A stretch of 64,000 nucleotides of DNA from an uncultured Acidobacteriota bacterium (GCA_963811425.1 CAWERV010000018.1:195332-259331), one strand, 5' to 3'. Shown: positions 41,909 to 61,823, counted from the first letter of the stretch. Made by a program: numbers and translations. The notes: generated by a model from the sequence alone, not told the origin.

Positions 41909-42000
41909 ATGAGTGGTGAGCCGTGCAGGACTCGAACCTACGAGAAGTTCACAACGGATCAACGAGTTGGAGCCGCGTGTTCGAGTCCTGTGTCCGAGTC
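41909..42000 (+). repeat. Array repeat copy R1
   Basis: atgagtggtgagccgtgcaggactcgaacctacgagaagttcacaacggatcaacgagttggagccgcgtgttcgagtcctgtgtccgagtc. Confidence 0.9.
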
Positions 42001-42128
42001 GGAAAAGCCCGACGCGCCAAGCGCTTTTCTCAGGGTCGGTCCGCGGCTCAGGCGGCCCAATGCTGAGGTAGCATTCCGCCCACCGCAGCGCAGACCATGG
42101 ACATTTTGAGAGTTGAAAGGAAGGTGTC

Positions 42129-43595
42129 TTGATGACGCGATCGCGACTTTGGACCTACGTCTCGTGTGGGCTACTCGCCACTACATTCGTGGCGTGCGGC
42201 CAAAAGGTCGAGCAGAAGGCCGCAGAGGTGGCCAAGGCACCCGAGAACTTGGTCAGGGAAACCGAGGCCCGCGAGGCCGGGATCGACGCCTACATCTACG
42301 CCTATCCGCTCGTGACGATGGAACTGACCCGCAGGGTCTCGACGAACGTCGCCGCGCCCGAGGGCAGCAAGGCTCCGATGGGGCAATTTGCCAAACTCCG
42401 CGGGTACCCGGCCGTCGATGACCATACGGTGACCGCCCCGAACGCGGACACCTTGTACACCGTGCTGTGGATCGATGTGTCCAAGGAACCCTGGATCGTG
42501 ACCTCTCCGGATATGAAGGGCCGCTTCTTTCTCCTCCCGATCCTGGACGGCTGGACCACGGTTTTCGCTGACCCGGGTAAACGAACGACAGGAACCGCCG
42601 CGCAGAAGTTTGCGATCACCGGCCCGGGCTGGAGCGGAACCCTTCCCGCTGGCGTCACGGAATACAAGTCGGCGACCGGCATGGTGTGGCTCCTGGGCCG
42701 GATCTACTGCACTGGGACACCCGATGACTACAAGGCTGTCCATGCGTTGCAGGACAAGATGACGGCAGTGCCGCTGTCTGCCTACGGCCAGTCCTTTACG
42801 CCGACACCAGGCGCTGTCGACTCCAGCGTCGACATGAAGACTTCGATCCGCGATCAAGTCAACGCGATGGACGCAGCGTCCTTCTTCAAGCTCTTTGCGC
42901 AGCTCATGAAGACCAATCCGCCGACAGCGGAAGATGCTCCGATGGTGGCGAGGCTCGCCAAGCTCGGGATCGTGCCGGGACAGGATTTCGACGTCTCCAG
43001 ACTCGACCCGGCAGTCGCGAAGGGTCTTGCTGACGTCCCCAAGAAGGCCCAGGACAAGATCATGTCCTGGATGAAGGAAGGGATCGTTGGAGGCGACATC
43101 AAGTTCACGGATGGCTGGCTGTTTACGACGAAGACCGGCATCTACGGGACTGCCTACCGCCAGCGCGCGCTGATCACGGCGATTGGTCTTGGAGCGAACC
43201 GGCCGCAGGATGCGGTCTACCCCACGTCCGAAGGACCGGACATCGTCAAGAAATACAGCGGCGCGAACAAGTACGTCTTGCACTTCAACAAGGGCGAACT
43301 CCCGCCGGTGGACGGCTTCTGGTCGCTGACGATGTACGACGCCAACTACTTCTTCGTGCCGAATCCGATCAACCGATACACGGTGAGCCAGCGCAACAAG
43401 CTCAAGGCCAACGCCGACGGGTCCGTCGACCTGTACGTCCAGAACGAGTCGCCCGGCAAAGACAAGGAAGAGAATTGGCTCCCGGCGCCGAAGGACCAGT
43501 TCATCCTGATGATGCGGCTGTACTGGCCAAAGGAGAAGCCGCCATCCATCCTCGACGGCAGCTGGAAGATCCCGGGCGTCAAGGAAGTCAGTTAA
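42129..43595 (+). CDS. DUF1254/DUF1214-domain lipoprotein
   Basis: Intact 488-aa ORF with lipobox LLATTFVAC. GIDAYIYAYPLV (DUF1254-like) and FWSLTMYD...NPINRY (DUF1214-like) blocks. Confidence 0.75.
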   Translation: MMTRSRLWTYVSCGLLATTFVACGQKVEQKAAEVAKAPENLVRETEAREAGIDAYIYAYPLVTMELTRRVSTNVAAPEGSKAPMGQFAKLRGYPAVDDHTVTAPNADTLYTVLWIDVSKEPWIVTSPDMKGRFFLLPILDGWTTVFADPGKRTTGTAAQKFAITGPGWSGTLPAGVTEYKSATGMVWLLGRIYCTGTPDDYKAVHALQDKMTAVPLSAYGQSFTPTPGAVDSSVDMKTSIRDQVNAMDAASFFKLFAQLMKTNPPTAEDAPMVARLAKLGIVPGQDFDVSRLDPAVAKGLADVPKKAQDKIMSWMKEGIVGGDIKFTDGWLFTTKTGIYGTAYRQRALITAIGLGANRPQDAVYPTSEGPDIVKKYSGANKYVLHFNKGELPPVDGFWSLTMYDANYFFVPNPINRYTVSQRNKLKANADGSVDLYVQNESPGKDKEENWLPAPKDQFILMMRLYWPKEKPPSILDGSWKIPGVKEVS

Positions 43596-43619
43596 GAGAG
43601 ACGCACCCGAAGCAGCCCT

Positions 43620-43670
43620 CGCGAGGCGCCGGCACGGCGCAGCCGCTCCGGCGCCTCGCGTCTGGTTTCT
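43620..43670 (+). terminator. Intrinsic terminator after the DUF1254/DUF1214 gene
   Basis: Perfect 13-bp inverted repeat CGCGAGGCGCCGG (43620-43632) / CCGGCGCCTCGCG (43648-43660) with a 15-nt loop, followed by TCTGGTTTCT. Confidence 0.6.
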
Positions 43671-43700
43671 CGTCCAAGTCCCGTGTCCTCGTTTTCCCCT

Positions 43701-43784
43701 GGTGAGCCGTGCGCAGGACTCGAAACTACGAGAAGTTCACAACAGGTCAGGGACCACCACGCGTCCGAGTCCTGTGTCCGAGTC
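43701..43784 (+). repeat. Array repeat copy R2 (most divergent in its middle)
   Basis: ggtgagccgtgcgcaggactcgaaactacgagaagttcacaacaggtcagggaccaccacgcgtccgagtcctgtgtccgagtc. Confidence 0.85.
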
Positions 43785-43841
43785 ACCGTTTGCGCCTCGC
43801 CCCGGCCCGTGCGACAATGTCGTACACACAGGAGATCACCA

Positions 43842-44057
43842 GTGACGACCCTGACCATACGGCTCGACCGGAAACTCGAGAAGGCGCTTGAACGCATCGC
43901 GACGAATACCGGAAGGACCAAGAGCGAAATTGCGCGCGAGGCGCTGAGACGTCAAGTCGCAGTCGCTCGTTTTCGGGAACTGCGGAAGAAGGCCTTGCCG
44001 TTCGCCGAGGCGCAAGGGCTCGTGACGGATGAAGATGTCTTTCGAGCCCTCTCGTGA
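43842..44057 (+). CDS. Ribbon-helix-helix antitoxin (CopG/VapB-like)
   Basis: GTG at 43842 follows AGGAG. TLTIRLDRKLEKALERIATNTGRTKSEIAREALRR is an RHH signature. Its stop overlaps the toxin start (GTGA). Confidence 0.7.
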   Translation: MTTLTIRLDRKLEKALERIATNTGRTKSEIAREALRRQVAVARFRELRKKALPFAEAQGLVTDEDVFRALS

Positions 44058-44461
44058 GAGTCTTCCTGGATGCGAACGTGCTCTTGAGCGCGTTCGCATC
44101 TCGGGGGCTGTGCGCTGACCTCCTGGAGGTCGTTTTGCTCGAGCACGACCTGGTTCTCGGGCACAACGTCGTCCGAGAGCTGAGCAAGGCGCTACGCCAG
44201 AAACTCAAGCTGCCGCCGGCCCGTGCAGCAGAGATCGTCGAATTCGTTTCCGGCGAAGCGGCTCAGCTCGTCGATGAGTCCCTGCCCAGCGGCGCCAGAG
44301 TCGACCCCGACGATGCGCTCGTGCTCGGGGAGGCGATCGCGGCTCATGCGGAAGGCTTCGTGACCGGGGATGCGGCCCTTCTCAAGCTCGGCACGGTCGA
44401 GAAGCTCGCCATCGTCACGCCCCGGCGGTTCTGGGAAGTCCTTCACACGGACAAGCCATAG
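44054..44461 (+). CDS. PIN-domain toxin (VapC-like)
   Basis: 135-aa ORF. N-terminal VFLDANVLLSA and later acidic residues (VDPDDALVLGEA, GDAALL) are typical of PIN nucleases. Confidence 0.75.
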   Translation: MRVFLDANVLLSAFASRGLCADLLEVVLLEHDLVLGHNVVRELSKALRQKLKLPPARAAEIVEFVSGEAAQLVDESLPSGARVDPDDALVLGEAIAAHAEGFVTGDAALLKLGTVEKLAIVTPRRFWEVLHTDKP

Positions 44462-44569
44462 CAGCCTGTTGGGCATCAATCACGTCTTGACTCTATCTGC
44501 GTCCATTCGTGGCTCACCCCCCCCGAGCAACGGCTCGTTGTTGGAATTCGTGAGAAGGCGTGAGACAGG

Positions 44570-44663
44570 ATGAGTGGTGAGCCGTGTAGGACTCGAACCT
44601 GCTGGAAGTTCACAACAGGTCACCGAGTTGGAACCGCGTGTCCGAGTCCTGAGTCCGAGTCCT
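44570..44663 (+). repeat. Array repeat copy R3 (with about 40 nt of extra 3' homology to R4, up to 44703)
   Basis: atgagtggtgagccgtgtaggactcgaacctgctggaagttcacaacaggtcaccgagttggaaccgcgtgtccgagtcctgagtccgagtcct. Confidence 0.9.
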
Positions 44664-44867
44664 CCTTACGGTTGACGAAACCCCTGACTGCACGCCGGGC
44701 ACCGAACAAGCGTCTGCCTCCCGCCATTTAGCTCGGCTACGATCCTGAGAAGACCCGGTCCTGGATGTCGCTCTCCCCGCATCACAGGCGGGTCAGTAGA
44801 ATGCCGGCAGCAGAGTTGCTCCGACGGAAAGGAGACCCGCGATGAAATATCAGCAGAGGGTCGCTCG

Positions 44868-45602
44868 ATGAGCGCGTACGCCGCCGCGATGTGGGGCGGG
44901 CTGGCCGCGGCGTCGCTGCTTCTGGGCGCGGGGCTGGCCCTGCGGTGGTCGCTCTCGGAGCGGCTCACGGGCGCGATCATGGGATTCGGGTCCGGCGCTC
45001 TCATCAGCAGCATCGCCTACGAGCTCGTGCCGGAATCGAAGATCGCCGGCGGCGGGCGATGGATCGTCCTCGCCTTCGCCCTTGGAGCGCTGGTCTTCTT
45101 CGTCGCCGATTGGGCGATCGACCGCAGCGGGGGCGCCGAACGCAAGAGCATCGAGGGAGGCAAGGGTGGGGGATCGGGCACTGCGATCTTCCTCGGGACA
45201 CTGCTCGACGGCGTGCCCGAGTCGCTGATCCTCGGCATGGGCCTGGCGACGGGCGGAGCGATCAGCGTCGCGTTTCTGACGGCGGTCTTCGTCTCGAACG
45301 TTCCGGAAGGGGTGGCGGGAACGCGCTCTCTCGTGGCCGCGGGCCGTACTCCGCGGCACGTTGTCGGCATGTGGACGGCGCTCATCATCGCATCGGCGAT
45401 CGCGTCGGCCCTCGGTTACGCGATCGTCCGCTCGATCCCGGCGGCCGACGGGCGATATGCCAAGGCCTTCGCCGCGGGAGCCGTTCTGACGATGCTTTCC
45501 GACGTCATGATGCCGGAGGCCTTCGAACACGGCGGCAAGCTCGTCGGCCTGCTGGCCACGCTGGGCTTCTCGACGGCGGCGATCCTCTCGGTGATGGAAT
45601 AG
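44868..45602 (+). CDS. ZIP-family divalent-metal transporter (ZupT-like)
   Basis: Intact 244-aa polytopic ORF. LLDGVPESLILGMG and SNVPEGVAG resemble conserved ZIP helices IV/V. Confidence 0.75.
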   Translation: MSAYAAAMWGGLAAASLLLGAGLALRWSLSERLTGAIMGFGSGALISSIAYELVPESKIAGGGRWIVLAFALGALVFFVADWAIDRSGGAERKSIEGGKGGGSGTAIFLGTLLDGVPESLILGMGLATGGAISVAFLTAVFVSNVPEGVAGTRSLVAAGRTPRHVVGMWTALIIASAIASALGYAIVRSIPAADGRYAKAFAAGAVLTMLSDVMMPEAFEHGGKLVGLLATLGFSTAAILSVME

Positions 45603-45603
45603 C

Positions 45604-45626
45604 CGCGTACGGCGCACGCGCTTTTT
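45604..45626 (+). terminator. Candidate intrinsic terminator after the ZIP gene
   Basis: CGCGT / ACGCG 5-bp stem with a 7-nt loop, followed by CTTTTTCGGTTTCG. This is a rare T-run in this GC-rich DNA. Confidence 0.45.
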
Positions 45627-45654
45627 CGGTTTCGCGAGAAATCGTGAGAGGGAG

Positions 45655-45747
45655 TGAGTGGTGAGCCGTGTAGGACTCGAACCTAACAGGAGTTCAAAAC
45701 AGGTCAATCACTTGGAGTTGCGTGTCCAAGTCCTGTGTCCGAGTCCT
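45655..45747 (+). repeat. Array repeat copy R4 (extra 3' homology to R3, up to 45787)
   Basis: tgagtggtgagccgtgtaggactcgaacctaacaggagttcaaaacaggtcaatcacttggagttgcgtgtccaagtcctgtgtccgagtcct. Confidence 0.9.
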
Positions 45748-45978
45748 CCTTGCGGTTGACGAAACCCCTGGATGGAGGCCGGGCACCCTGCAGTCGCCAG
45801 ATCGCTCCGATTTCGCTCCACCTCGAAGGCGCAGCGATCGGCCCGACCCAGTCCGAACTCTCATCGTGTCGAGCCGATCTACGGTGTCGGGATCCGCCAC
45901 GACGGCTCGGCCACGAGCTTTGGCCATCCGGCTCTCCCCGAGAGTGGCAGGATGGCGTTCAGGTAAACTCCGAACCTG

Positions 45979-48234
45979 TTGGCAGACACCTCATCGATTC
46001 TCGGTCGCACCGTCTCCCACTACACCGTCCTGGAACAACTGGGTGGTGGCGGGATGGGCGTGGTCTACAAGGCCACCGACACGCGCCTCGGCCGGAGCGT
46101 TGCCCTGAAATTCCTTCCCGATGACATTTCCCAGGACCCACAGGCGATCGAGCGATTCCGCCGAGAAGCGCGCGCCGCATCCGCGCTCAATCATCCCAAT
46201 ATCTGCACCATTCACGACATCGGAGAGTTCGAGGGTCGACCGTTCATCGCCATGGAGTTGCTCGAGGGCGAGACTCTCAAGCATCGTCTCGCCGGGAAGC
46301 CCATCGAAGTCTCGGAGCTCCTGGAGATCGGCATCCAGATAGCCAACGGGCTCGATGCGGCTCACTCGAGGGGTATCGTGCATCGCGACATCAAGCCGGC
46401 GAACATCTTTCTGGTGTCGCGCGGGCCAGCAAAGCTCCTGGACTTCGGTCTGGCGAAGCTCGCGCCCGCCGTCCGGCAGTCCGCCGACTCGGTGGGCGCC
46501 ACATTTATTCCCGATCAGACCCACGCCCCCGAGGGAGGGCATCTGACGAGTCCGGGCAGCTCGATGGGCACGATCCTCTACATGTCACCCGAGCAGGCGC
46601 GCGGCGAGGAGCTGGACGCGCGATCGGATCTGTTTTCGCTCGGCGTCGTGCTCTACGAGATGGCGACGGGTCTTCCTCCCTTCTCCGCTTCGACCTCGGC
46701 GCTCATTTTCGACGGAATCCTGCATTCCGCACCGACACCGGCAAGAGAGCTGAATCCGCGGCTGCCGGCGGCGATCGAAGGCCTCCTGAACAAGACCCTC
46801 GAGAAGGATCCCGATCTGCGGTGCCAGACGGCAGCCGAACTTCGAGCCGACCTGAAACGGCTCAAGCGCGACATCGAGTCCGGCCGGCGACCCGTCGCCG
46901 AGAAGACCGTCTCGGGTTCAGGGGCGCACCCGTCTGCGGCCACGCAAAAATCGGTCGCGGTGCTCTACTTCGAGAACCAGAGCGGCGCGAAAGAGGACGA
47001 ATATTTCCGCGACGGGATCACCGAAGACATCGTCACGGAGCTGTCGAAGATCGCGAAACTCGAGATCTTTCCGCGCTCGGAGATGCTCGCGTTTCGCGAC
47101 AAGCCGGTGACCGCGCTCCAGGTCGGCCAGCAGCTCGGCGCCGCCTACGTGCTCGAGGGGTCCATCCGACGCGCCAGCAACCGGGTGCGGATCACCGCGC
47201 AGCTCGTGGAAGCCTCGACGAAACGTTCCGTCTGGGCGGAGCGATACGACCGCCAGCTCGAGGACGTCTTCGCCATCCAGGAGGAAATCGCCCGGAGCAT
47301 CGCCCAGGCGCTGCGCATCACGCTGACGCCGCAGGAAGAGACGACGATCGCGCGCAAGCCCACGGACAACCCGCTGGCCTACGACTTCTACCTCCGCGGC
47401 AAGAGCTACTCGCGCCGGGAGAACATCGATTACGGCCTGCAGATGTTCGAGCAGGCCATCCAGCTGGACCCGAAGTTTGCCCTGGCGCACGCCGGGATTG
47501 CCCAGCTCTGCGGGCTCATCTACGAGCTTCGGGAACAGAAGCCGGAGTGGCTCGAACGAGCGAAGGCGGCCTGCGATAAGGCCGCGGCTCTCGTGCCGGA
47601 CATGCCGGAGATTCTCGTCGCAAAGGCTCGGATCTCCTACACGCAGAAGAAATACGACGAGGCCGCGCTGCTGGCATGGCGCGCCATCGAGCGCAAGCCG
47701 GACTGCGACGGCTCCTGGAACATCCTCGGCCGCGCGTATTTCGCCGCCGGCCGCTTCGAAGACGCCGCGGCGCTCACGGATCGAGCCATCGAAGCCAACG
47801 GCGACGACTACAACACGTTTCTCCCCTACGTGAACGCGCTGCAGCGGCTAGGGCGGACGAGCGAAAACTTGAAGCTGCGCAAGCAGATGGTCAAGATCCT
47901 CCGCCAGCAACTCGAACAGGTGCCGGAAGACGTGCGCGCCCGGATCCTGTTGTCCGCGTACCTCGCCTATCTGGACGAGGACCCGGACGAGTGCATCCGG
48001 CACCTGCAGACCGCGGTGGCTCTGCGCCCCGGCGATTCCAACACTCTCTACAACGCGGCTTGCACCTATGGTGTCCTCGGGAAGAAGGCCGAGGCGCTCG
48101 ACACGCTCAAGAAGGCCTTCGCGGCCGGATATGGCAACCCGAATTGGGCGGCCAATGATTCTGACCTCGATTGCCTGCACGACGACCCTGATTTCCAGAA
48201 ACTGGTCGGCCTCAGCGAACGCTCCGCATCGTAG
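45979..48234 (+). CDS. Ser/Thr protein kinase with TolB-like middle region and C-terminal TPR repeats
   Basis: TTG start. Kinase motifs are [27 protein letters not shown] and SPEQ. The [11 protein letters not shown]...[17 protein letters not shown] module comes next, followed by TPR-like repeats. Confidence 0.85.
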
Positions 48235-48264
48235 AATCGCCCGAATCCAGCGCTCCAGCTCCTC

Positions 48265-48411
48265 CGACGGGTCGATCCGCTCATCGACGTCGCGCCGTCG
48301 GTACCGGACGGTCTCGCCGCCGTGGTCGCAAAGGCCATGCGCAAGCTGCCGGAGGAGCGCTTCGCTTCGGCGTCAGCGCTCCGCGATGCCCTTCTGGCGT
48401 CGCCCCCGTAA
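48265..48411 (+). pseudogene. Remnant of a second Ser/Thr kinase (C-lobe subdomain XI only)
   Basis: Translates as RVDPLIDVAPSVPDGLAAVVAKAMRKLPEERFASASALRDALLASPP-stop. It has no start codon and no upstream kinase motifs. It lies in the same frame as, and directly after, the TAG of the intact kinase. Confidence 0.6.
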
Positions 48412-48619
48412 ACCTACAACTGGGGTCAACCTCGAAAGGTAGTTGTGCAATCCGGCCGGGCGCACGCGGACACCGTCCTCGATCCGGTCGCTCGGGTCGA
48501 GGACGACCGCCTCTCCCTCTTTCTAGAGGCCTACGGTCTCCCGAGGTCCACGACGACAAGATAAGCGGCCGGCTAGGGAAATCTCTTCCCTCGGGTGCCG
48601 TTTGTCACGAGGCCCTTGA

Positions 48620-48654
48620 GGAAACTACGTGCCCGAGTTTGTGTCCCGAGTCCT
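48620..48654 (+). repeat. Degenerate copy of the tandem 13-mer part of the array repeat
   Basis: ggaaactacgtgcccgagtttgtgtcccgagtcct compares with the consensus CGTGTCCGAGTCCTGTGTCCGAGTCCT. Confidence 0.45.
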
Positions 48655-48771
48655 CGGCCCAAAAACACCCACTTTTCTCAATTTGGCCGATCGCAGCGGA
48701 ATCCTAGGAACCTGCTCAACTTACTCTGCGACCGCGCGTTGTTGGGCTTCGTTGGAACCTGTGAGAGGGGC

Positions 48772-48862
48772 TGAGTGGTGAGCCGTGTAGGACTCGAACC
48801 TTCAGGAAGTTCACAACAGGTCAACGAGTTGGAGCCGCGTGTCCGAGTCCTGTGTCCGAGTC
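48772..48862 (+). repeat. Array repeat copy R5
   Basis: tgagtggtgagccgtgtaggactcgaaccttcaggaagttcacaacaggtcaacgagttggagccgcgtgtccgagtcctgtgtccgagtc. Confidence 0.9.
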
Positions 48863-48969
48863 ATCCGCGCCCTATTCGACAGCACGTCGCGCCTCGCAGC
48901 GACGCGCTTGCGTCCGGCCGGCAAGTTCATCCCCTCCAGCGCGATCGTTGTGCCGTGCTTCGCGAGACT

Positions 48970-49299
48970 CTACTTCGCCTTCCGATGCCCCTCGGCAACG
49001 GCGTGGTTTCCCCTGCGTCCCAGGGCGCTGGGGAGCCTGGCCATGCCAGCTCGCGCACGCGCGAGATCGTAGGAGCTCTGAAGGTTGATCCAGAACTCCG
49101 GCGTCGTCCTTAGAGCCGAAGAGAACAAGAGCGCCGTCTCCGGGGTCACTCCCCGCTTGCCGTTGACGATCTCGTTCACCCGCTGGATCGGGATCCCGAG
49201 ATGGTTCGCGAACTCGACCTGTGTGACACCCATCGGATTCAGAAACTCCTCAACGAGCATTTCGCCCGGATGTGTCGGAATTCGGCTGGTCGGCAACAT
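48970..49299 (-). CDS. higA: HigA-family antitoxin (XRE-type HTH)
   Basis: HPGEMLVEEFLNPMGVTQVEFANHLGIPIQRVNEIVNGKRGVTPETALLFSSALRTTPEFWINLQ is the HigA/VapI signature. Confidence 0.85.
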   Translation of the reverse strand: MLPTSRIPTHPGEMLVEEFLNPMGVTQVEFANHLGIPIQRVNEIVNGKRGVTPETALLFSSALRTTPEFWINLQSSYDLARARAGMARLPSALGRRGNHAVAEGHRKAK

Positions 49300-49314
49300 G
49301 ACTCCCCCCTTGGT

Positions 49315-49605
49315 CTAGTGGTAATCGGTCAGGGTCACGTCTCGCGCGAGGCCATCTTCCCAGCGAAAGACGATTCGCCATTGATCGTTCACGCGGATGC
49401 TGTGAAAACCCTTCCAGTCGCCCTTCAGCGCTTCCAGTCGGTTGCCAGGAGGCGCCTTCAGGTCAGCCAGGATGTGAGCCGCTTCGATCATGTCGAGCTT
49501 TCTCTTCGCCGCGCTTAAGACGTCCGGGCCTACCCGTCTCGTCCGGGAAGAGGTCTGGCCGTCGTAAATCTCCTCGGTCACGGCATCCCCGAAGGAGGCG
49601 ATCAC
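49315..49605 (-). CDS. higB: HigB-family toxin (RelE/ParE superfamily, plasmid maintenance system killer)
   Basis: 96 aa. PPGNRLEALKGDWKGFHSIRVNDQWRIVFRWEDG is the HigB signature. It lies upstream of higA, as usual for higBA. Confidence 0.85.
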   Translation of the reverse strand: MIASFGDAVTEEIYDGQTSSRTRRVGPDVLSAAKRKLDMIEAAHILADLKAPPGNRLEALKGDWKGFHSIRVNDQWRIVFRWEDGLARDVTLTDYH

Positions 49606-49690
49606 CCGCGAATACTACACGACTACCGTGCAATCGTGCAAGAGCCGGGGCACAAGCCGCCGGCGACCGGAAATGCACCGACGAGAGGCT

Positions 49691-49780
49691 CAGTGGTGAG
49701 CCGTGTAGGACTCGAACCTACGAGAAGTTCACAACAAATCAGCCACTTGGCGCATGTGTCCGAGTCCTGTGTCCGAAGTC
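49691..49780 (+). repeat. Array repeat copy R6
   Basis: cagtggtgagccgtgtaggactcgaacctacgagaagttcacaacaaatcagccacttggcgcatgtgtccgagtcctgtgtccgaagtc. Confidence 0.9.
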
Positions 49781-49807
49781 ATTTCGGAGGACGCTCTTGG
49801 AAGCTGT

Positions 49808-50659: not shown

Positions 50660-50670
50660 GAATTTCTCCT

Positions 50671-52101: not shown

Positions 52102-52102
52102 G

Positions 52103-53203: not shown

Positions 53204-54595
53204 TCCGACTCGAGCACGGCCTCGACGCGCCCCGCGCGAATCGCCTTCTTGAGCGCCCCGTGGTCCCGCTCGCTCTGGTCGGCGTAGGCGACGGCAAAGG
53301 CCGCGATGGCCTTGTCGAAGGCGTCGCTCTTACCCAGATAGCCGCTGATCTGTGCCGGCTCCGACAGACCGGGCGTGAGCCCGCGCCAGCGTCCTGGCGC
53401 AGATTTCCGCGTACTGGGTCATCATGACGGGCTTGAAGAGCTCGACCATGGGCGAGATCTTCATGTCCTTGAGCCGCCGGACGTAGAAATGCCGGCCGAG
53501 CTTGCCCTTCGTCCAGCCGAGGAAGATGTCGCTCGCCGACTGCATGAGTCGGTACCCGTTGACGACGCGCTGCCCGTGATTCGGGTAGACGCTCCTGCCG
53601 GCGTAGGGCTCGAGAACCGAGCGGCGGGCCTCCTTGACCTGGAGGAAGAGGGGATCGCGATCACTGGCCATCAGCAGCATGACGGCGCAGAAAGTTCCGA
53701 CGCTGCCGACCCCGACGACCTTGATCGCGATGTCTTTGAGCTCGAATCGGTCGAGCAGGACGCGCCGGTCCTCCTGCAGGGACTCCCGGTAAGCGCCGAA
53801 GGCCTCCCGCGCGCGCGTCAGGAGGGCCTCCCCGCCCTCGTTCTGCGGGTGGTAGATCAGCGGAGGGTTGTCCTTGATGACGGGCTTCTTCCCGGCTAGC
53901 GCGGCGAGCTTCGGGAAATCGTGCTCCTGCACGCTGCGAGCACGGGCTTTCGCCAGCAACCTCTGGTGCCGCTGGCGGGTTTCCTTGTCCCTGAGCGTGG
54001 GCAACGTCTTCTCCACCTCGATGCTCGAGTACCAGACGTCCAGCACCGACATCTGGGCAAATTCCGCCATGTGCTCGCGGTAGGAGCGAACGCAGGAAAG
54101 CGCGGCATCTCGAGCCGCCCGCTCGCTGAAGCCGTTGTTCCGACAGGCCAGGACCACGCTCGCCGCGAGACGTTTGACGTCCCACTCCCAGGGCGCGGGC
54201 AGAGTCTCGTCCATGTCGTTGACGTCGAAGATGACCCGGCGTTCGGGCGTTGCGAAATCGCCGAAGTTGAGGAGGTGGCAGTCGCCGCACGCCTGCACTT
54301 GAAGGCCGGTGGCCGGCATGCCGGCCAGGTCGGCGGCCATGTTGAGCGCCGCCCCCCGATAGAAGGTGAACGGCGTCTTCACCATCCGTCCGTAACGAAT
54401 GGGGATCAGCTCGGGAATGCGCCCCTTGTTCGACGCTTCGAGCAGACTAAGAGGGTCGCGGCGATCGTGCGGCGGCTTCCATCCAGCGTGGGAGCGGCGC
54501 GGACACTTGTCCCGCAAGCGCTTTCCGATCTCCGAGAGCTTCTCCGGAGAGAGACGCGGCCTGGCTGGCCCGAACGCGCGGCCGGAAGGTTTCAT
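53200..54595 (-). pseudogene. DUF2252-family protein with one frameshift near 53362
   Basis: ORF 53330..54595 carries DUF2252 blocks (IPIRYGRM..PFTFYRGAA, ACGDCHLLNFG). The expected C-terminus PAQISGYLGKSDAFDKAIAAFAVAYADQSERDH continues in another frame down to a stop overlapping the channel ATG (ATGA). Confidence 0.7.
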
Positions 54596-54646
54596 ACTCC
54601 CTCCTTCTCTGGGGAGAGACTCAGCGTGGCGTCAGCGCGCCGAGGA

Positions 54647-54678
54647 GAGTCCACGGCTCAAAACTTCGTGAGGTTCGG
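54647..54678 (+). repeat. Inverted, rearranged fragment of the tRNA-like part of the array repeat
   Basis: The plus strand reads GAGTCC-ACGGCTCA-AAACTTCGTGAGGTTCGG. The minus-strand consensus of the array repeat is AACTTCTCGTAGGTTCGAGTCCTACACGGCTCA. The same blocks appear in opposite orientation and in permuted order. Confidence 0.4.
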
Positions 54679-54923
54679 CGCCGGTGGCGAGCATTGCAAC
54701 GATTGCCTGTCTCTGGCGCGTGATCTCCATCGTCATCTCCTCGTCGAGTCGACGAACGTCTCGCCTACCCTGCCTTCTTGGGGTACTGGATGTTCTTCAG
54801 CGAAGACAGTCGTCAGCACGGAGCACTCCCTGAAAAGTCAGCGCGTCACTACAACGCGATCCAAGGCGCGAGCCGCTCCCTGCGGAGCGGCCCGCGTCGT
54901 GGACGATGGGACGGACCAACGGC

Positions 54924-56591
54924 TCAGTGCGCTCCGACGGTCTGAGGCAACTTGATCGGATCGTACGGGAGCGGATTCTCGGGATTCTGCAGATTCGGGA
55001 TCATGTCGTTGGAAGCTCCGCCGGGGAATCGCTTCTTGTTCGGAAACTGGACGATGGACTTGTTGAACTCCATGAGCGGAATGTCCCCGAGCGAAATGGC
55101 CCAGCCATTGTCCATGCCTGCGTAGCGCCCCGCCGACGAGGTCGGATTGCGCACAGCCACCGCGCCGTTGAACGTCATGTCGTACTTCTCGTACGGGTCC
55201 ATCGTGAGGTTGTAGGTCGAACCGATGGCGCCAAGGTCCAGCGTCGGCCCCAGCCACGTGTCCTTCGAGGAGTAAAGCATCTTCCATGCAATCTTCAGGT
55301 CGGGATTCTCCGGGTCACCGCCGACGTCGGCACGCATGCCCAGAAACTTCTCGCCGTCGGTGTAGATCCAGCCATTGCGCGCCGAATGCTTCGCCTTGCC
55401 GGTGACGTAGGCCGTGTTGTCGATGCCGTCGAAGTAGATGGGCTTGCCGTTGTTGTCCTTCCAGGCGCCGTGCGGAGGCGGGGTGAGGCCGGCCATCGTG
55501 GCCGTCGTGGGCCACACGTCCATGTGCGACATCATTTCGATGAGGACCTGTCCCGCCGGTATCCGGCCCGGCGCCCACATGATGCCCGGCACCCGGAACG
55601 CCCCTTCGAAGCCCGTGCCTTTCTCGCCGCGGTACGGGTTGGTGCCCGCGTCGGGCCAGGCGTCCTGCCAGGCGCCGTTGTCTGCCGTGTGGATGACGAT
55701 GGTGTCGGGCGCCGCCGCACGGATGGCATCCATGATCCGGCCGATGTTGTAGTCCATTTCCATCATCTTGTCGGAGTAGTTGCCGAGGTGTGACTTGCCC
55801 TGGAATGCCTTGTTCGGGCTGGTCGGCTGGTGCATGCCCATGAAGTTCACGCTCATGAAGAACGGCTTGCCGTCCTTGGCGTGCTGCTTGATGTAGGCGA
55901 CCGCCGAATCCGTCTGGCGGACGTCGAAATCGGCCAGGTTCTCCAGCGTGATCACGGCGCCGTTGTTGCCCTTGACCGCGGGCTTGCCCGCCGTGCCCTC
56001 CCATTCATACCGGTTCACCACCTTCTGGTACATGTCCCAGTATTCCTTGTTGTACTTCGGGAACCACGGGTGCGCATTGGGTGCCGTGTCTTCATACCCA
56101 TAGACACCCGGGTAGTAGGCTGCGAACTGCTTCATCTCGTCGAAGCCGTGCTCGATCGGGTAAAACTTCGGCACGTCGCCGAGATGCCACTTGCCGGAGA
56201 AGTAAGTCTGGTAGCCGTTTTTCCTGAAGAACTCGGCGATGGTCGGCGTGTCCGCGTCCAGGCCGTTCGGGTCGCCGGGGACGACCACGACCGACAGGGC
56301 CGTGCGGACCGGGATGCGACCGGTCATGAACGAGGCGCGGCCCGCCGTGCAGCTGGCCTGGCCGTACCAGCTCGTGAACATCGCGCCTTCTTTGGCCATT
56401 CGATCGATGTTCGGCGTGGGATGCCCAAGCGCCGCGCCGCCGTGGTAGACGCCGTAGTCGCCCCAGCCGACGTCGTCGCTCATGAGCATGACGACGTTGG
56501 GCTTCTTGCCCGACGCCTGGCCGAGTGCCGTCAGGCTCGCCGTCAGGCCGAGCAGGACGGCCAGGAACATTCGATACCTGGATTTAGACAT
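54924..56591 (-). CDS. Arylsulfatase (intact), secreted
   Basis: 555-aa ORF with a signal peptide. NVVMLMSDDVGWGD and the active-site region SCTAGRASFMTGR (Cys-type sulfatase motif variant). Confidence 0.85.
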   Translation of the reverse strand: MSKSRYRMFLAVLLGLTASLTALGQASGKKPNVVMLMSDDVGWGDYGVYHGGAALGHPTPNIDRMAKEGAMFTSWYGQASCTAGRASFMTGRIPVRTALSVVVVPGDPNGLDADTPTIAEFFRKNGYQTYFSGKWHLGDVPKFYPIEHGFDEMKQFAAYYPGVYGYEDTAPNAHPWFPKYNKEYWDMYQKVVNRYEWEGTAGKPAVKGNNGAVITLENLADFDVRQTDSAVAYIKQHAKDGKPFFMSVNFMGMHQPTSPNKAFQGKSHLGNYSDKMMEMDYNIGRIMDAIRAAAPDTIVIHTADNGAWQDAWPDAGTNPYRGEKGTGFEGAFRVPGIMWAPGRIPAGQVLIEMMSHMDVWPTTATMAGLTPPPHGAWKDNNGKPIYFDGIDNTAYVTGKAKHSARNGWIYTDGEKFLGMRADVGGDPENPDLKIAWKMLYSSKDTWLGPTLDLGAIGSTYNLTMDPYEKYDMTFNGAVAVRNPTSSAGRYAGMDNGWAISLGDIPLMEFNKSIVQFPNKKRFPGGASNDMIPNLQNPENPLPYDPIKLPQTVGAH

Positions 56592-56715
56592 TTCTCCAAC
56601 CCTCCTTGACGCTGTTGTCTTTCCGCTCGCTTTGAGTGATACAGGTTTACAGCCTGGCCGGCGCGTTGGCCACTAGACCTTGGTTCAGGCGGGGCGCGCA
56701 TGTCCGCTCGAGGTG

Positions 56716-57099
56716 TCACGAGGCGCACCCCCTCGTGCGCAGCGCCGTCTCGACCGCCCCGAGGAGCTCGTCGTTGGGGAAGGGTTTCCGGAGCAGCCGG
56801 ACGCCTCCGGCCTCGGACGCCGCCCGGTCGAGCGACGGGTCGTCGCTCGCCGTGATGAACAGCGCGGGAAGCCCGGGGTGCGAGGAGCGCAGGCGCGACT
56901 GCACGTCGAACCCCGACAGCTGCGGCATGTGGACGTCGAGGATCACGCAGTCGGGCCGGAACGCCTCGAGGGAGGCGAGGAGCTCCTCGCCGGACGAGTA
57001 GGCGGCGACCTGGTAATCCGCCAGTCGCAGGAGACGGCTGAGTGTCTTGAGTACGGGCGCTTCGTCGTCGACGATAGCGACGCGGGTACCTGCTGCCAT
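56716..57099 (-). CDS. Single-domain response regulator (receiver only)
   Basis: 127 aa with VAIVDDE...ILDVHMP...LRKPF receiver motifs. Confidence 0.8.
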   Translation of the reverse strand: MAAGTRVAIVDDEAPVLKTLSRLLRLADYQVAAYSSGEELLASLEAFRPDCVILDVHMPQLSGFDVQSRLRSSHPGLPALFITASDDPSLDRAASEAGGVRLLRKPFPNDELLGAVETALRTRGCAS

Positions 57100-57167
57100 T
57101 GCCCCACGCTACGGCGCGAGCGCGGGAACCGGCAGTAGGACCTTGGTCTAGTCGGCTCCCGGCGAAC

Positions 57168-57842
57168 CTATGCGCGACGGGGCTTCCGCGGATTCCCCGA
57201 GCTCGACGGCGCGTCGGTTCTCGTCCCGACGCCGAGCCTCGCCGCGATGATCATCAGCTCGGCGACCGTTCGCGCCTGCATCCGCTCCATGAGGTGGGCG
57301 CGATGGAACTTGACCGTCTGCTCGACGATTCCGAGGTCGCCCGCGATCTGCTTGTTGAGCCGGCCCGCTACGATCCCCTCCAGAACCTCGCGCTCGCGCG
57401 CGGTCAGGAGGGCCAGCCGCCGCCGAAGCTCCGCGGTGTCCGCCGCGGCCTGCCGCGAAGCCGCACCCTGGTCGATTGCCGAGCGGAGGGCGGGGATCAG
57501 GGCGGCGGCCCGGACGGGCTTGGTCAGGAAGTCGGCGGCGCCGGCCTTGATCGCACGGACGGACATGGGGATGTCGCCGTGTCCGGTTATGAACACGATC
57601 GGCGCGGCGCGGACGGCTTCGGCGAGGCGGCGCTGTAGCTCCAGTCCGTCGATGCCCGGCAGGTTCACGTCGAGGAGGAGGCACGCCGGCGTCTCGGGGC
57701 CCGGATGAGCGAGGAACGCTTCGGCGGAATCGAATGTCTCGACCCGGAAGCCCTCAGCCCGCAGGAGGCGGGAGAGTGCCTTCAGTACTCCCGCGTCATC
57801 GTCGACGACGAAAACCGTCTCCCGCGCGGCTTCCGTTGTCAT
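57168..57842 (-). CDS. LuxR/FixJ-family response regulator
   Basis: ATG at 57842 overlaps the kinase stop (ATGA). Receiver domain (VFVVDDD...LLDVNLPG...FLTKP) plus C-terminal LTAREREVLEGIVAGRLNKQIAGDLGIVEQTVKFHR HTH. Confidence 0.85.
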   Translation of the reverse strand: MTTEAARETVFVVDDDAGVLKALSRLLRAEGFRVETFDSAEAFLAHPGPETPACLLLDVNLPGIDGLELQRRLAEAVRAAPIVFITGHGDIPMSVRAIKAGAADFLTKPVRAAALIPALRSAIDQGAASRQAAADTAELRRRLALLTAREREVLEGIVAGRLNKQIAGDLGIVEQTVKFHRAHLMERMQARTVAELMIIAARLGVGTRTDAPSSSGNPRKPRRA

Positions 57843-60027
57843 GACTCGTGACGCGAGGGCAGGGTGACGCAGAAGATCGCCCCGCCCCCCGGGCCGTTGG
57901 ACGCCGCCAGGCTTCCCTGGTGCGTGGCGACGATCGAGCGACAGATTGCGAGACCCATGCCGATTCCGGCGGGCTTCGTGCTCCAGAACGGCTCGAGCAA
58001 CTCTTTCAGATTGTCCGGGGGTATTCCGGGACCGTTGTCGGTGACGAAGATGCGGGTACTCGAGTCGATGGCTTCCGTGCGGATACCGACCCTCCTTTCG
58101 TGTTCGTCGATGCCGCTCACCGCGTCGGCGGCGTTGAGGACCAGGTTCAACAGGACCTGCTGCATCTGAACGCGATCGCCGTCGACGGTCGGAAGCGAGG
58201 AATCCAGTTCCGTGACGACCCGGACCTGGCGCTCCAGGAAGTCGGACCGGACGAGTTCCAGCGTCTCGAGGATCAGCCTGTTCGTGTCGATGGGCTCGAG
58301 CTGCAGCTCGCTTCGCCTCTGGAAGAGCGTCCTGAGATGCCGGATCACCTCCGCGGCGCGAACGCCCTCCGTGACGATGTCGTCGCAGATGGCCCGAAGC
58401 TCGGCAAGATCGATCGGCTCGCGACCCAGGATCTTCTGCACCGCCTCGGCATTGCCGAGGATGGCGGCCAGCGGCTGGTTCATCTGGTGCGCAATGGACG
58501 CGGAAAGCTGCCCCAGCGTCGAGACGCGGCTCATGTGGCGAAGGGCGGTGCGGTCCCGCTCGGCCTGCAACTCGGCGAGCTTGCGGGGCGTGATGTCGAG
58601 CGTCACGCCGAGCAGGTGCTGTCCGTCTCCCTTTTCCATGCGCGCCCCGCGCGACGACCCAGCGCACCTCGCCATCAGGCCGTAAGAGGCGGTACTCGAC
58701 GTCCAGATCCGAACCCTCCACGGCTTGCCGCGCGGCTTGCTCGACGGCTTCGCGATCCGCAGGGTGCGCGGCTTCGAGGGCCTGGCGGAGCCCGCCCGTC
58801 TGCTGCGCGCGATGAGCCGGGATTCCAGAGCCCGTCGCCCCCGACGTCCCACACCCACATCGAGAGCTCCGCTGCGCGCGCCGCGAGCGTCATGCGCTCC
58901 CTGCTCTCCTCCAACGCGGCCGCCGTTCGGCGCCGCAATCGCCGTTCGACAAGGAGCGCGGCGATCAGCCCGGCCTGAACAAGAAAGGTGACGAGGCCGA
59001 CGATCGCCGTCGTGCGGTGCGCCTGCAAGAACGTCGGCTCCCGGAAGTGCCAAACGGCTCCAGCGGGAATCTCCCGCTCGGCGATCCCCCACCGGCGGGC
59101 CTGCCGCCAGTCGAGGTGGAGCGCGGTCGCCGTGAGCTCCGGCAGGCGGAGCGACGAGGGCTTGGCGCCGGCGAGAAGCTCGGTGACAATCCCCGCGGCC
59201 TCGCGCCCCATGCCTCTGAACGTCGGCATTCGCCCGCCGACGACGCCCGTGCCGAGGAATGAATCGTAAGGCGCGTAAACGGGAGCCGTCGTCGCGCCGG
59301 CAATGAGCTCCACGGAATCGTGCGGAGTGAAAACGCGGCCATCCCCGTCCTCGAAGTAGCCGGGTGAGAAGACAATGGCGTCCCCTCGGAGCCCGCGCAG
59401 ACGTTCGAGGACCTCGCCGGTCGGTAGGCCGGCGAGGAATTCGGGCTTCGCACGGCCGGAAAACGCCGGCGCCTCCGTCCTCAGTCGTGTCTCCCAGTCA
59501 CGGTCCCACACCGAAGCCCCCGTCACGACGATGAGGCGCCGGACCTTCGGATGCCAGGCCAGGGCCTGCTCAATCGTGGCGGAAAAATCCCACTCGATCG
59601 GGACACCAACCACGTCGGGCGGCAACGCCGGCATTTTTCGCAGATACGAGCGGGAGACGGCCACATGGACGACTGGCGTCTGAGGGAAGAGCTGGTCGTG
59701 ATGACCCAGGATGAACTCGAGAGCATCCTCGGCAGCCACGACGATCACGTCCGGCAGCCGAGTGGCGTATTTCTCCCTCAGGTACGTGGCCATGGTGTCG
59801 CTGTAAGCCGGCCCACCGAAGTGAGGCACGTCGAGGAACTCGGCGAAGAGCTCCACGTGTCGATCTGCCAACATCGCGAACGTCTCGCGCAGGCCGCGCT
59901 CGATCTCGATGTTCGCCGGCAGCAGTCGGGCATTCGAGAAGATGACGAGAACGTCTTTGTTCTCCACGGCCGGCGCTGACGGGGCGTGCGCGAGCCCCAG
60001 CGCGGCCAGGAGCATGCCGGTACACAT
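57839..60027 (-). pseudogene. Sensor histidine kinase (periplasmic substrate-binding-like domain, PAS, HisKA, HATPase); frame broken several times around 58620-58850
   Basis: The N-terminal sensor and TM part is in ORF 58675..60156 (start ATG 60027). A PAS piece DLDVEYRLLRPDGEVRWVVARG is in ORF 57168..58721. The H-box LGQLSASIAHQMNQP and the HATPase part (DNGPGIP, GIGMGL) are in ORF 57839..59092. Confidence 0.7.
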
Positions 60028-60102
60028 CGCCGTTCTCACGCGGGTATTCTCTGCGAGAACGCAGACGACTGACGAGGCGGAAAGGCCCCGAACCCGAATT
60101 GA

Positions 60103-60207
60103 ATGAGTAGTGAGCCGTGTAGGACTCGAACCTACGAGAAGTTCACAACAGGTCAACGAGTTGGAGCCACGTGTCCGAGTCCTGTGTCCGAGTCCTTTGT
60201 CCGAGTC
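60103..60207 (+). repeat. Array repeat copy R7 (three 13-mers)
   Basis: atgagtagtgagccgtgtaggactcgaacctacgagaagttcacaacaggtcaacgagttggagccacgtgtccgagtcctgtgtccgagtcctttgtccgagtc. Confidence 0.9.
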
Positions 60208-60233
60208 GGTCTACGACGAAAGTCGGCACCGCC

Positions 60234-61559
60234 TCACTTGGAAGCGCCAAACAACTCCACGGTCGCAAACGGCTCGGCCGACCACGGCCGGAAGCGGTTG
60301 AGCGTGAACTTCGTTTTCTGCCCGGGCTTCACGTCCACCAGCACGTAGTTGTATTCCTCCTTCGGAGACGCGCCCTTCCAGTACAGGTCCGGCGGGTAGC
60401 CCTCGGGCACCTTGATGTGCGTCCTGCCGGGGAGAATCGGGTCCTGTTCCGCACCCCCTCCGCCTAGCAGCAGGTACTTCACCCCGTCCACCTCGTAGAG
60501 CTCGGTCGTGTGCACGTGCCCGTTGAAGACGGTGATGTCGAGGTCCTTGGCATAAGCGGCAATCGTCTTGTGGGGATTCTGCGCCTCGGGAATGGCGCCC
60601 ATGCCGGAGCGGCAGAAGACCGGATTGTGGAAGGCGATGAAAACTTTCTTTGTCCCCGCAGCCTTGGCCTCGTCCAGCCACGCCTGCATCTGCTTCATCT
60701 GTTCCGGGAAGGAGGGGCGCGTGGAATCCCACGACGTCGGCTCCTTGTAGTTGTACTGGCCGGTCCAGAGGAAGATGAAGCGAGCGCCGTCGTAGTCGAA
60801 CTTGTAGATGAGCTGCTTGTCGGTCACGCCGAACTTCTTGAGGTACGGGAAGGCCGTCAGCAAACCTTCGACGTCGGAGTCGTTCCAGACTTCGTGATTG
60901 CCGACGGCGGGATAGACGCGGCCCGGTAGGCCCGCAGCCTGCATCTTCTTGCTCGCGAGCGGCAACTGCTTCAGGACCTCCTCGTTGACGAGCTTCCAGT
61001 AGGGGTTGTCGGACGGTTTGACGCCCTGCTTGCCCCACCACACCATGTCCCCGGTGTTGAGAATGAAATTGGCTCGCCCGCTCTTGACGTCCTTCACGAT
61101 CTCACGGGCCACCCACTCGCCGCCCTCCAAGCGGAACATCGTGCGGCGCACACCCGGCAGCAGCTTGACGTCCTCGACCGACGCCTCCGTGACCCAGCCC
61201 TTGTCGAACGTCAGGGTCGTCACCTCGTTGGCGGTCATGAACGGCATGACCATCTGCACCAGCTCTTTGTTCGCTGGGTCGTAGATCAGCTTGACGTCCT
61301 TCTCCACGAGCGCATCCGCGACCTTCTCCGGCAGCACAAGCTCGAACAGGTCCACCATCAGCTTGCGAGCTTCCGCCTCCTGATCCTGCTTGTACGGGAG
61401 GTACATCATCGAGCGTGAGTCACCGTACACGGCAAACGAAAAGCTGGAATCGGCAGGCTTCGGCGCCTGCTGCGCTGCCGCCGGGAGACCCGGAACCAGC
61501 ATCGCAACCAATACGAACCACGATCGCGTCGATCTCAGAGTGGCGGAGACGGGACTCAC
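60234..61559 (-). CDS. Secreted metallophosphoesterase
   Basis: GTG at 61559 lies 5 nt after GGAGG, then a signal peptide. Calcineurin-like motifs are GDSR, GDMVWWG, GNHE and GHVH. Confidence 0.75.
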   Translation of the reverse strand: MSPVSATLRSTRSWFVLVAMLVPGLPAAAQQAPKPADSSFSFAVYGDSRSMMYLPYKQDQEAEARKLMVDLFELVLPEKVADALVEKDVKLIYDPANKELVQMVMPFMTANEVTTLTFDKGWVTEASVEDVKLLPGVRRTMFRLEGGEWVAREIVKDVKSGRANFILNTGDMVWWGKQGVKPSDNPYWKLVNEEVLKQLPLASKKMQAAGLPGRVYPAVGNHEVWNDSDVEGLLTAFPYLKKFGVTDKQLIYKFDYDGARFIFLWTGQYNYKEPTSWDSTRPSFPEQMKQMQAWLDEAKAAGTKKVFIAFHNPVFCRSGMGAIPEAQNPHKTIAAYAKDLDITVFNGHVHTTELYEVDGVKYLLLGGGGAEQDPILPGRTHIKVPEGYPPDLYWKGASPKEEYNYVLVDVKPGQKTKFTLNRFRPWSAEPFATVELFGASK

Positions 61560-61718
61560 GGGGGCCTCCTGTTCTTTTGTCAGCCGCTCGAAAACGGCGG
61601 GCGGCCTTCGGTGGCCGCCGCCAAGGATACTGGAGCTACTGCCCGGACTGATGGTCGATGGCTTCCTGGACCTTTGCCTTGATCGCCTCCAGGTTGAAGC
61701 AGGCCGGCAACGAGCGGA

Positions 61719-61823
61719 ATGAGTGGTGAGCCGTGTAGGACTCGAACCTACTAGAAGTTCATAACAGGTCAACGAGTTGGAGCTGCGTGTCCGAGTCCTG
61801 TGTCCGAGTCTTCTGTCCGAGTC
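61719..61823 (+). repeat. Array repeat copy R8 (three 13-mers)
   Basis: atgagtggtgagccgtgtaggactcgaacctactagaagttcataacaggtcaacgagttggagctgcgtgtccgagtcctgtgtccgagtcttctgtccgagtc. Confidence 0.9.

Follow-up and report, generated by a model that had tools for sequence, protein, structure and literature searches.

Gene cassettes bounded by tRNA-Lys(CTT)-derived repeats form tandem arrays in Acidobacteriota

We analysed a 64,000-nucleotide stretch of DNA from an uncultured Acidobacteriota bacterium (GCA_963811425.1, CAWERV010000018.1:195332-259331; hereafter the window, meaning the whole stretch), in which eight co-oriented repeats separate seven complete gene cassettes. Each repeat joins the 3′ end of a tRNA-Lys(CTT) gene to a non-tRNA arm, and arrays of the same repeat in related genomes, wherever their end is visible, end at an intact tRNA-Lys(CTT) gene; they carry some of the same cassettes in a different order. 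With a probability that we put at about 0.75, the window is the tRNA-distal part of an island built by tandem site-specific integration at the tRNA-Lys(CTT) 3′ end, its cassettes resembling cis-mobilizable elements (CIMEs) served by a tyrosine integrase in trans. This reading requires a minus-strand tRNA-Lys(CTT) gene to the right of the window.

Results

Structure of the repeat

The eight repeats, of about 95 nt each, lie on a single strand and share 76-94% pairwise identity. All of them had been reported, with the same orientation, in an earlier sequence-only reading of this DNA, and our window search found each one where that reading had placed it. A 32-nt core (GTAGGTTCGAGTCCTACACGGCTCACCACTCA) is present with at most one mismatch in seven of the eight copies, always on the minus strand, where shuffled sequences gave an expectation of 0, and GTCCGAGTC occurs 18 times in the window (1.8 expected), exclusively on the plus strand. 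Because both counts lie far above the shuffles or the expectation, chance can be excluded as the source of the repeats.

On the minus strand, each repeat ends in GTAGGTTCGAGTCCTACACGGCTCACCA followed by CTCA, which together contain a T stem-loop, the 3′ acceptor strand, the discriminator base and CCA. The core is identical to the last 28 nt of tRNA-Lys(CTT) plus the four bases (CTCA) downstream of the gene. What the sequence-only reading had called an unfamiliar site is therefore a tRNA-Lys(CTT) 3′ end with an attP-type arm. ARAGORN and Rfam searches of the window returned no tRNA and no known RNA; ARAGORN misses the copies since no more than the 3′ third of the tRNA is present in them. The remaining ~60 nt are not tRNA-derived and constitute a P arm, which in the window contains two or three 13-mers in tandem, candidate sites for integrase binding that read GTGTCCGAGTCCT on the plus strand. 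The number of 13-mers (GTGTCCGAGTCNT) is mostly two, rises to three in repeats 7 and 8, and reaches at least five in locus L021 (578-716; L plus a number denotes the locus labels of this analysis), a variation that points to slippage, or to selection acting on how many binding sites a copy has. In L021, a 5.5-kb contig, the repeat is also inverted relative to the conserved tRNA 5′ flank with no tRNA between them; either a misassembly or an inversion could account for this.

Each repeat is a P-O junction of the attR type, in which an element-derived P arm is fused to the O core, and the P′ arm found on the plus strand immediately to the left of each O belongs to the older unit next to it. Among copies, the T-stem 5′ strand varies at its second base (GTAGG, GAAGG, GCAGG, TTAGG), and everything 3′ of it is constant, which would place the crossover 3′ of this base, with the T loop (TTCGAGT) as its most probable position. 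On either side of this 7-nt loop, the T stem (GTAGG/CCTAC) would offer the inverted core sites and overlap region that are typical of tRNA-targeting tyrosine integrases.

Distribution of the arrays and the tRNA gene at their ends

Other genomes were scanned with a 28-nt degenerate pattern derived from the repeat, using one genome per species, and related genomes were sampled only as 8-kb blocks containing an exact pattern match. The genome scan gave 28 blocks and the metagenome scan 28 further stretches (56 repeat-bearing loci). All but one of the genome blocks (27/28) come from metagenome-assembled genomes (MAGs) labelled Thermoanaerobaculia or unclassified Acidobacteriota, the exception being a 4-kb contig from a MAG that bears the label Fimbriimonadaceae. 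No taxonomic label is attached to the metagenome contigs. Viral contigs gave no repeat match. Copies are co-oriented in every one of ~50 loci, and no locus contains a copy in the minus orientation. On Mb-scale contigs the copies are confined to one stretch of tens of kb. CAVXRK010000004.1, for example, has eight exact-pattern and 12 profile-detected copies at 123-168 kb, ending at the tRNA, while CAWJYL010000001.1 has five exact-pattern copies inside 24 kb and a 2.95-Mb contig yielded one block only. A solitary full repeat was found in L022 (CAWJYL010000002.1, 2.18 Mb), the main array of this MAG being on another contig; possible reasons are a rearrangement, a binning problem or the existence of a second locus.

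The array end is visible in ten loci (five genome blocks, together with four complete and one truncated metagenome loci), and in each of them an intact tRNA-Lys(CTT) gene is found there. It is 100% identical in all ten, has the same sense as the fragments in the repeats, and has the array on its 3′ side. The tRNA is flanked 5′ by a region (ThiS and neighbours) that is syntenic between genomes, and 3′ by variable sequence.

Cassette reshuffling between loci

Fifty O-to-O intervals measure 0.8-10.4 kb, with a median of ~2 kb; two short intervals outside that range (173 and 267 nt) occur where a partial copy lies close behind a full one. When cassette interiors were clustered, a HigBA toxin-antitoxin cassette was found in seven loci and a ribbon-helix-helix (RHH)-PIN toxin-antitoxin cassette in five, whereas nearly all others were unique. 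The order of these two cassettes and their distance from the tRNA differ between loci. The window reads unique, RHH-PIN, unique, unique, HigBA, unique, unique; the CAWJYL array has RHH-PIN and then HigBA; L004 has HigBA, RHH-PIN and the tRNA; L017 has a unique cassette, HigBA and RHH-PIN; and L019 has HigBA followed directly by the tRNA. Similarity to the window begins at the opening repeat of each cassette (43700 for RHH-PIN, 48772 for HigBA) and, for HigBA, ends at the next repeat (49780); for RHH-PIN it ends at 44472, ~100 nt short of repeat 3. The proposal that self-contained cassettes accrete site-specifically is borne out by these differences in content and order, and the check that had been suggested for it, a search of other genomes for cassette presence/absence and reordering with breakpoints at the repeats, gave a positive result.

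Several window segments outside the eight-repeat array also adjoin repeats in other genomes. Segment 28109-31245 is the tRNA-adjacent cassette of L009, 34534-38213 (AcrB) lies directly after a repeat in L007, 33757-34514 lies before a repeat in L017, 18334-19930 (two SDR genes) comes after one in L028, and 63448-64000 comes immediately after a copy that is full in L013 and L011 and partial, with O only, in L008. Because these segments are cassettes elsewhere, the island extends from at least ~18 kb to beyond 64 kb, with its tRNA-distal sites eroded, and the limits first proposed for the array (41.9-61.8 kb) are too narrow. A profile built from 47 repeat copies detected two further eroded copies in the window, on the same strand as the others (Table 1); these, and the tRNA nature of the repeat, had been overlooked in the original list of copies. 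The repeat missing at 34514/34534 is most simply explained by deletion. Together with the P-only copies at 26.3 and 28.0 kb, this loss fits the older, inner units of an island. The AcrB gene belongs to a complete RND efflux operon (AcrB, an unassigned open reading frame (ORF) and OEP) that, with a divergent ArsR regulator, occupies 34773-40824 in the eroded part of the island; the AcrB end comes immediately after a repeat in L007, so that operons of several genes, too, are carried as cassettes.

A conserved site carried with different cargo

All seven complete cassettes of the window are bounded by repeats and lack a recombinase. Between HigBA cassettes the cargo is ~66% identical and O+P 84-88% identical. 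At the opposite end, 13 distinct cassette ends share a P′ arm ending in ...CGTTGTTGG..TTCGT.GGAAA.CGTGAGAG.G..TGAG, and six of the 13 share a P′ module of ~230 nt with two further TGTCCGAGT sites, attached to unrelated cargo. No conserved ORF was found in this module, one copy of which lies directly before the intact tRNA in CAVXRK. P′, O and P thus form a conserved attP-like site of ~320 bp that is carried with different cargo. Such conservation alongside unrelated cargo favours a family of units that are not autonomous over relics of random deletion. Small integrase-less units (0.8-10 kb) that keep P, O and often P′ would therefore behave like CIME-type or satellite cassettes.

Candidate integrases

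No recombinase was found by Pfam among the ORFs scanned in 0-10 kb and 17-64 kb of the window, the regions covered by annotation; simple ORF calling was poor in 10-16 kb. We then used a tyrosine-recombinase hidden Markov model (HMM) and jackhmmer on every ORF of 50 aa or more, both from the window and from the 56 repeat-bearing loci (~345 kb in all), in place of single-sequence phmmer with lambda Int and XerD, which was insensitive in a control. The search yielded two matches only, in L010 and L028. That the window holds no recombinase, as the sequence-only reading had observed, is thus upheld, and a matching tyrosine integrase family is now placed at the same tRNA-Lys locus in relatives.

The L010 match (4877-5593; Phage_integrase, E 2.6e-20) lacks the catalytic Tyr, is truncated at the C-terminus, and adjoins an O-only copy inside the CAVXRK array. 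Relatives of this family, in other metagenomes, lie near tRNA-Met and not tRNA-Lys, and it was rejected as the cognate enzyme; it probably derives from a different element. The presence of an unrelated integrase in the array implies that more than one integrase family seems to use the island.

The L028 match (3987-4475) is an integrase C-terminal fragment, a pseudogene in which the RRY motif is kept, that reads into the O side of the repeat and stops ~45 nt away, the geometry of lambda int and attP. A word-index search with this fragment matched only itself. An exhaustive representative search identified P0122 (400 aa, 56% identity) as its best full-length relative, and P0226 is a P0122 homologue (57% identical). 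Both match Pfam Phage_integrase (34.6 bits for P0122 and 38.5 bits for P0226; cut-off 27.1), and they lie 65 nt and 17 nt, respectively, from the 3′ end of an intact tRNA-Lys(CTT). Beyond this tRNA are the genes of the same syntenic flank as at array ends, and on the element side small ORFs, some of them HTH_17 (excisionase-like) genes, extend over at least 11 kb. P0122 is encoded on JAYRMU010000016.1, a contig that also carries an array block (L026). Here the tRNA is at 92 kb, the integrase element occupies 92-103 kb and beyond, and a co-oriented P-O repeat lies at 171.6 kb, an order that the accretion model predicts.

The spacer between integrase and tRNA contains two CGGACAC motifs, 11 nt apart, in both the P0122 and P0226 elements, and two ACGGAC motifs are found at the matching place in L028. 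Read as its reverse complement, CGGACAC corresponds to the first half of the cassette 13-mer. These observations suggest that P0122/P0226 are cognate to the cassette sites, and this family, adjoining the orthologous tRNA-Lys in relatives, would be the best candidate for a trans-acting integrase. More distant P0122 relatives (~40% identity) target tRNA-Asn or no tRNA, and tRNA-Lys specificity is on that account confined to the P0122/P0226 subgroup.

Genes and other features of the window

The features of the window are listed in Table 1. Pfam confirmed the gene content of most intervals, and with it most of the assignments made from the sequence alone; for the protein at 44868-45602, which had been proposed to be a ZIP transporter, neither Pfam nor NCBIfam gave a match. 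Cassette genes point both ways, as had been described, with four cassettes on the plus strand and three on the minus strand. Cassette 6 contains genes for an unknown protein, a porin O/P, an SBP_bac_3/ligand-gated channel protein, a DUF2252 protein, a sulfatase, a response regulator, an RR-LuxR protein and a second unknown protein. The metallophosphoesterase ORF of cassette 7 overlaps repeat 8, so its true start is downstream of that repeat. The two terminator-like hairpins that had been pointed out before repeats do exist, but such sites are not enriched (16 versus 12.9 ± 4.1 in shuffles). The GC content of the array (62-67%) is not clearly apart from the window mean of 66%; values of 71-76% occur at 10000-16000 and 38000-40000.

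Table 1. Repeats, cassettes and related features of the window (positions counted from its first nucleotide).
Feature	Position	Strand	Description
Eroded copy	26273-26321	-	P arm only, array orientation; profile E 3e-8
Weak eroded P-arm copy	28043-28091	-	Profile match; followed by segment 28109-31245
Cassette-cassette junction without repeat	34514-34534		Full repeat present there in L017 and L007
Repeat 1	41909-42001	-	Leftmost intact copy; O core 41910-41941, P arm 41942-42000, two 13-mers; 1 mismatch to 32-nt core
Cassette 1	42002-43699	+	DUF1254/DUF1214 protein, 42129-43595
Repeat 2	43700-43790	-	Most diverged; 2-nt insertion at acceptor/T-stem junction; without CTCA; P arm shortened
Cassette 2	43791-44569	+	RHH antitoxin and PIN toxin; also in 4 other loci; tRNA-adjacent in L004
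Repeat 3	44570-44668	-	O 44571-44602, then P arm; short class-A P′ arm before repeat, ~44520-44569
Cassette 3	44669-45653	+	244-aa protein, 44868-45602, no family match
Repeat 4	45654-45752	-	O 45655-45686, then P arm; short class-A P′ arm before repeat
Cassette 4 cargo	45753-48539	+	Ser/Thr kinase with TPR repeats, 45979-48234
P′ module, full class-A	48540-48771		~230 nt, no conserved ORF; two TGTCCGAGT-like sites at 48621-48654; ends ...CGTTGTTGGGCTTCGTTGGAACCTGTGAGAGGGGCTGAG
Repeat 5	48772-48867	-	O 48772-48803, then P arm
Cassette 5	48868-49690	-	HigB 49315-49605, HigA 48970-49299; also in 6 other loci; tRNA-adjacent in L019
Repeat 6	49691-49781	-	O 49690-49721, then P arm
Cassette 6	49782-60102	-	10.3 kb, 8 genes; no internal repeat detected (profile)
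Repeat 7	60103-60207	-	O 60104-60135, CCA changed to CTA; three 13-mers in P arm (60163-60207)
Cassette 7	60208-61718	-	Metallophosphoesterase
Repeat 8	61719-61823	-	O 61720-61751, perfect tRNA 3′ end; three 13-mers in P arm (61779-61823)
Right-hand continuation	61824-64000	+	Porin N-terminal stub; bestrophin-like/DUF4239 gene 62066-62797; small DUF7836-like ORF

Some further observations concern the window as a whole. The N-terminus (VKRLGLL...) of a Phenol_MetA_deg porin gene (27123-28031), with its upstream bases, recurs as the 34-codon stub to the right of repeat 8 (27108-27163 versus 61882-61937), which looks like a gene remnant left by rearrangement. A paralogous frame consisting of a small 81-aa ORF and a methyltransferase 3′ end occurs twice (17942-18324 versus 40861-41244, and 19952-19986 versus 41821-41855, with 82% and 97% identity). 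The methyltransferase body is replaced in the first copy by a pair of SDR genes (18343-19914, minus strand), and the same SDR pair forms the cassette of L028 that adjoins the repeat and the integrase pseudogene. A near-perfect 52-nt palindrome (88%) lies at 13482-13532.

Discussion

Proposed mechanism

Under the reading that we favour, a P0122-type integrase would insert circular units at the tRNA T arm, each insertion rebuilding the tRNA and pushing older units inward. The uniform orientation of the repeats would follow because each new insertion at the tRNA displaces the older units. Integrase-less cassettes with the ~320-bp site may use the P0122-type enzyme in trans, and recombination between any two O cores would excise one or more cassettes, whose re-entry at the tRNA would then be possible. 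Mobility is suggested here by comparison of species-level genomes. More tentative, and in our estimation somewhat short of an even chance, is the wider proposal that Thermoanaerobaculia possess a dedicated cassette-capture platform of an evolutionary origin separate from integrons, in which a lambda-type integrase encoded elsewhere inserts, excises and reshuffles cassettes with the ~320-bp site at tRNA-Lys(CTT) and thereby produces hypervariable arrays of tens of kb.

Several points weigh against tandem integration with an enzyme supplied in trans. ARAGORN found no tRNA-Lys gene within the window, and neither the HMM nor jackhmmer detected a tyrosine recombinase among its ORFs of at least 50 aa. 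Neither an excised circle nor an empty site was seen. Reordering could have arisen through homologous recombination between the ~95-nt repeats, and the conservation of O+P could come partly from gene conversion among them. The link between P0122 and the cassettes consists of one pseudogene, a shared locus and a shared 7-mer, and the P arm of the integrase-bearing elements was not recovered.

Alternative explanations

The arrays might instead be fossil islands, that is, inert scars of full-size integrase-bearing elements whose content has been deleted, with differences in order produced by homologous recombination or independent decay. The integrase pseudogenes inside arrays (L028, L010), the eroded or missing repeats of the window, and the lack of any intact integrase in ~345 kb of window and repeat-bearing sequence are all in keeping with this explanation, and such decay has been described for CIMEs (PMC5704250). 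We nevertheless consider it unlikely. Even 0.8-kb cassettes retain both arms, and the P arm and the ~230-nt P′ module are conserved across unrelated cargo and species-level genomes, more so than protein-coding cargo of equal divergence. Moreover, the tRNA-adjacent slot, which would be the newest, is held by different cassettes in different genomes, among them the 0.9-kb HigBA and the RHH-PIN cassettes.

Far less probable is an array of the integron type, with single-stranded hairpin sites resembling attC and an IntI-like integrase, or its integrase-less counterpart, a cluster of attC sites lacking integron-integrases (CALIN). There is one site per cassette, toxin-antitoxin cassettes are present and cassette diversity is high, and an inverted match between a T-arm part of the repeat (GGACTCGAAC) and the first 13-mer (GTCCGAGTCC) is seen in some single-sequence folds. 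However, RNAalifold on 74 distinct copies gave -6.2 kcal/mol and one covarying pair, with no conserved fold, and five of six folds were within 1.5 standard deviations of shuffles (z-scores -2.6 to +0.55, only the plus strand of copy 1 reaching -2.6). GTTRRRY boxes of the R″/R′ type are absent from the repeat boundaries, in line with the earlier observation that the repeat does not resemble the attC consensus. The site is instead the 3′ end of a tRNA, an intact copy of which stands at the end of arrays; both strands carry genes, one cassette extends over 10 kb with eight genes, no IntI was found among the ORFs searched, and the integrases of related arrays are non-IntI pseudogenes. The integron-likeness proposed by the sequence-only reading therefore survives in the outcome of the array and the variation of content at the sites, and not in an IntI, an attC fold or a common orientation. 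We give still less credence to a dispersed tRNA-derived repeat (of the repetitive extragenic palindromic (REP), miniature inverted-repeat transposable element (MITE) or short interspersed nuclear element (SINE)-like kind) that spreads by itself and is intergenic by chance. Short size, intergenic position and the solitary copy on a second contig of one MAG (L022) would suit such a repeat. It is contradicted by the single co-oriented cluster on Mb-scale contigs, by zero minus-orientation copies in any locus, by the absence of terminal inverted repeats with target duplications, and by arrays that end at a tRNA gene. REP or MITE scatter, which the sequence-only reading had judged a poorer fit and had named as an outcome that would refute its proposal, is excluded by this clustering of co-oriented copies at one main locus per genome.

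Significance and comparison with known systems

If the cassettes are mobilised in trans, they would represent a second, independently evolved route to integron-like arrays of single-function cassettes, for which an ordinary tRNA-targeting integrase and double-stranded attP/attB chemistry would suffice. Such a process would explain the large flexible-gene region of a common soil lineage, the Thermoanaerobaculia. The interest of the arrays lies in their regularity, in the conserved arm module and in their spread across this lineage, and the combination of tRNA 3′ fragments with a conserved arm provides a searchable signature for similar platforms. A full-text literature search on this theme turned up no account of integrase-less mini-cassettes that share an arm module and stand in long, regular arrays at a tRNA gene.

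Sedentary chromosomal integrons and CALINs are alike in outcome, since they too form long arrays of small, diverse cassettes with one site each, include toxin-antitoxin cassettes, and vary in order between genomes. In contrast, the arrays described here have no IntI, attI, attC structure or consensus, common promoter or common orientation; their site is tRNA-derived and resembles double-stranded attP/attB, and their anchor is a tRNA gene. Integrative mobile elements exploiting Xer (IMEX) offer another parallel. At dif in Vibrio cholerae, integrase-less elements (CTX/TLC/RS1) are stacked in tandem at one chromosomal site by the host XerCD. Both systems comprise tandem integrase-less elements and, on our reading, both would rely on a recombinase that these do not encode, whereas the site here lies in the T arm of a tRNA and has additional arm repeats, and a phage-type integrase is the candidate enzyme.

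Closer in site are the integrative and conjugative elements (ICEs), integrative and mobilizable elements (IMEs) and CIMEs that accrete in tandem at tRNA genes, for example at the tRNA-Lys 3′ end in Streptococcus agalactiae, and the ICESt1/CIME elements of S. thermophilus; a CIME has lost its integrase, keeps attL and attR, and is mobilised by the integrase of a partner (PMC5704250). Integration at a tRNA gene 3′ end and tRNA-end direct repeats that separate tandem elements are common to those systems and to ours. To our knowledge, published tandems of this kind consist of two or three large elements. The window, by comparison, has eight units and the CAVXRK array at least 12, mostly of 0.8-3.7 kb and with a single gene or a few; unrelated cargo shares a dedicated arm module that is conserved, no conjugation or mobilisation genes were seen, and the host is Acidobacteriota.

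Tycheposons of Prochlorococcus form islands beside tRNA genes in which successive integrations at the same site push older elements inward, and these islands contain scattered partial tRNAs and fragmented integrases as well as adaptive cargo (10.1101/2020.12.28.424599). The tRNA-side location, the partial tRNAs, the fragmented integrases, the adaptive cargo and, on our reading, the inward push are shared with the present arrays. Most units here differ in having no hallmark gene and in being far smaller and more regular, and their arm sequences are conserved in addition to the tRNA part; Prim-Pol/DnaB-like modules were found only in distant P0122 relatives (L070, L072). Tandem accretion is a known process, which takes an unusually regular, integron-like form in these arrays and, if our reading is correct, would carry the notion of CIMEs and tycheposons beyond a few large elements, to mini-cassettes in long and regular arrays.

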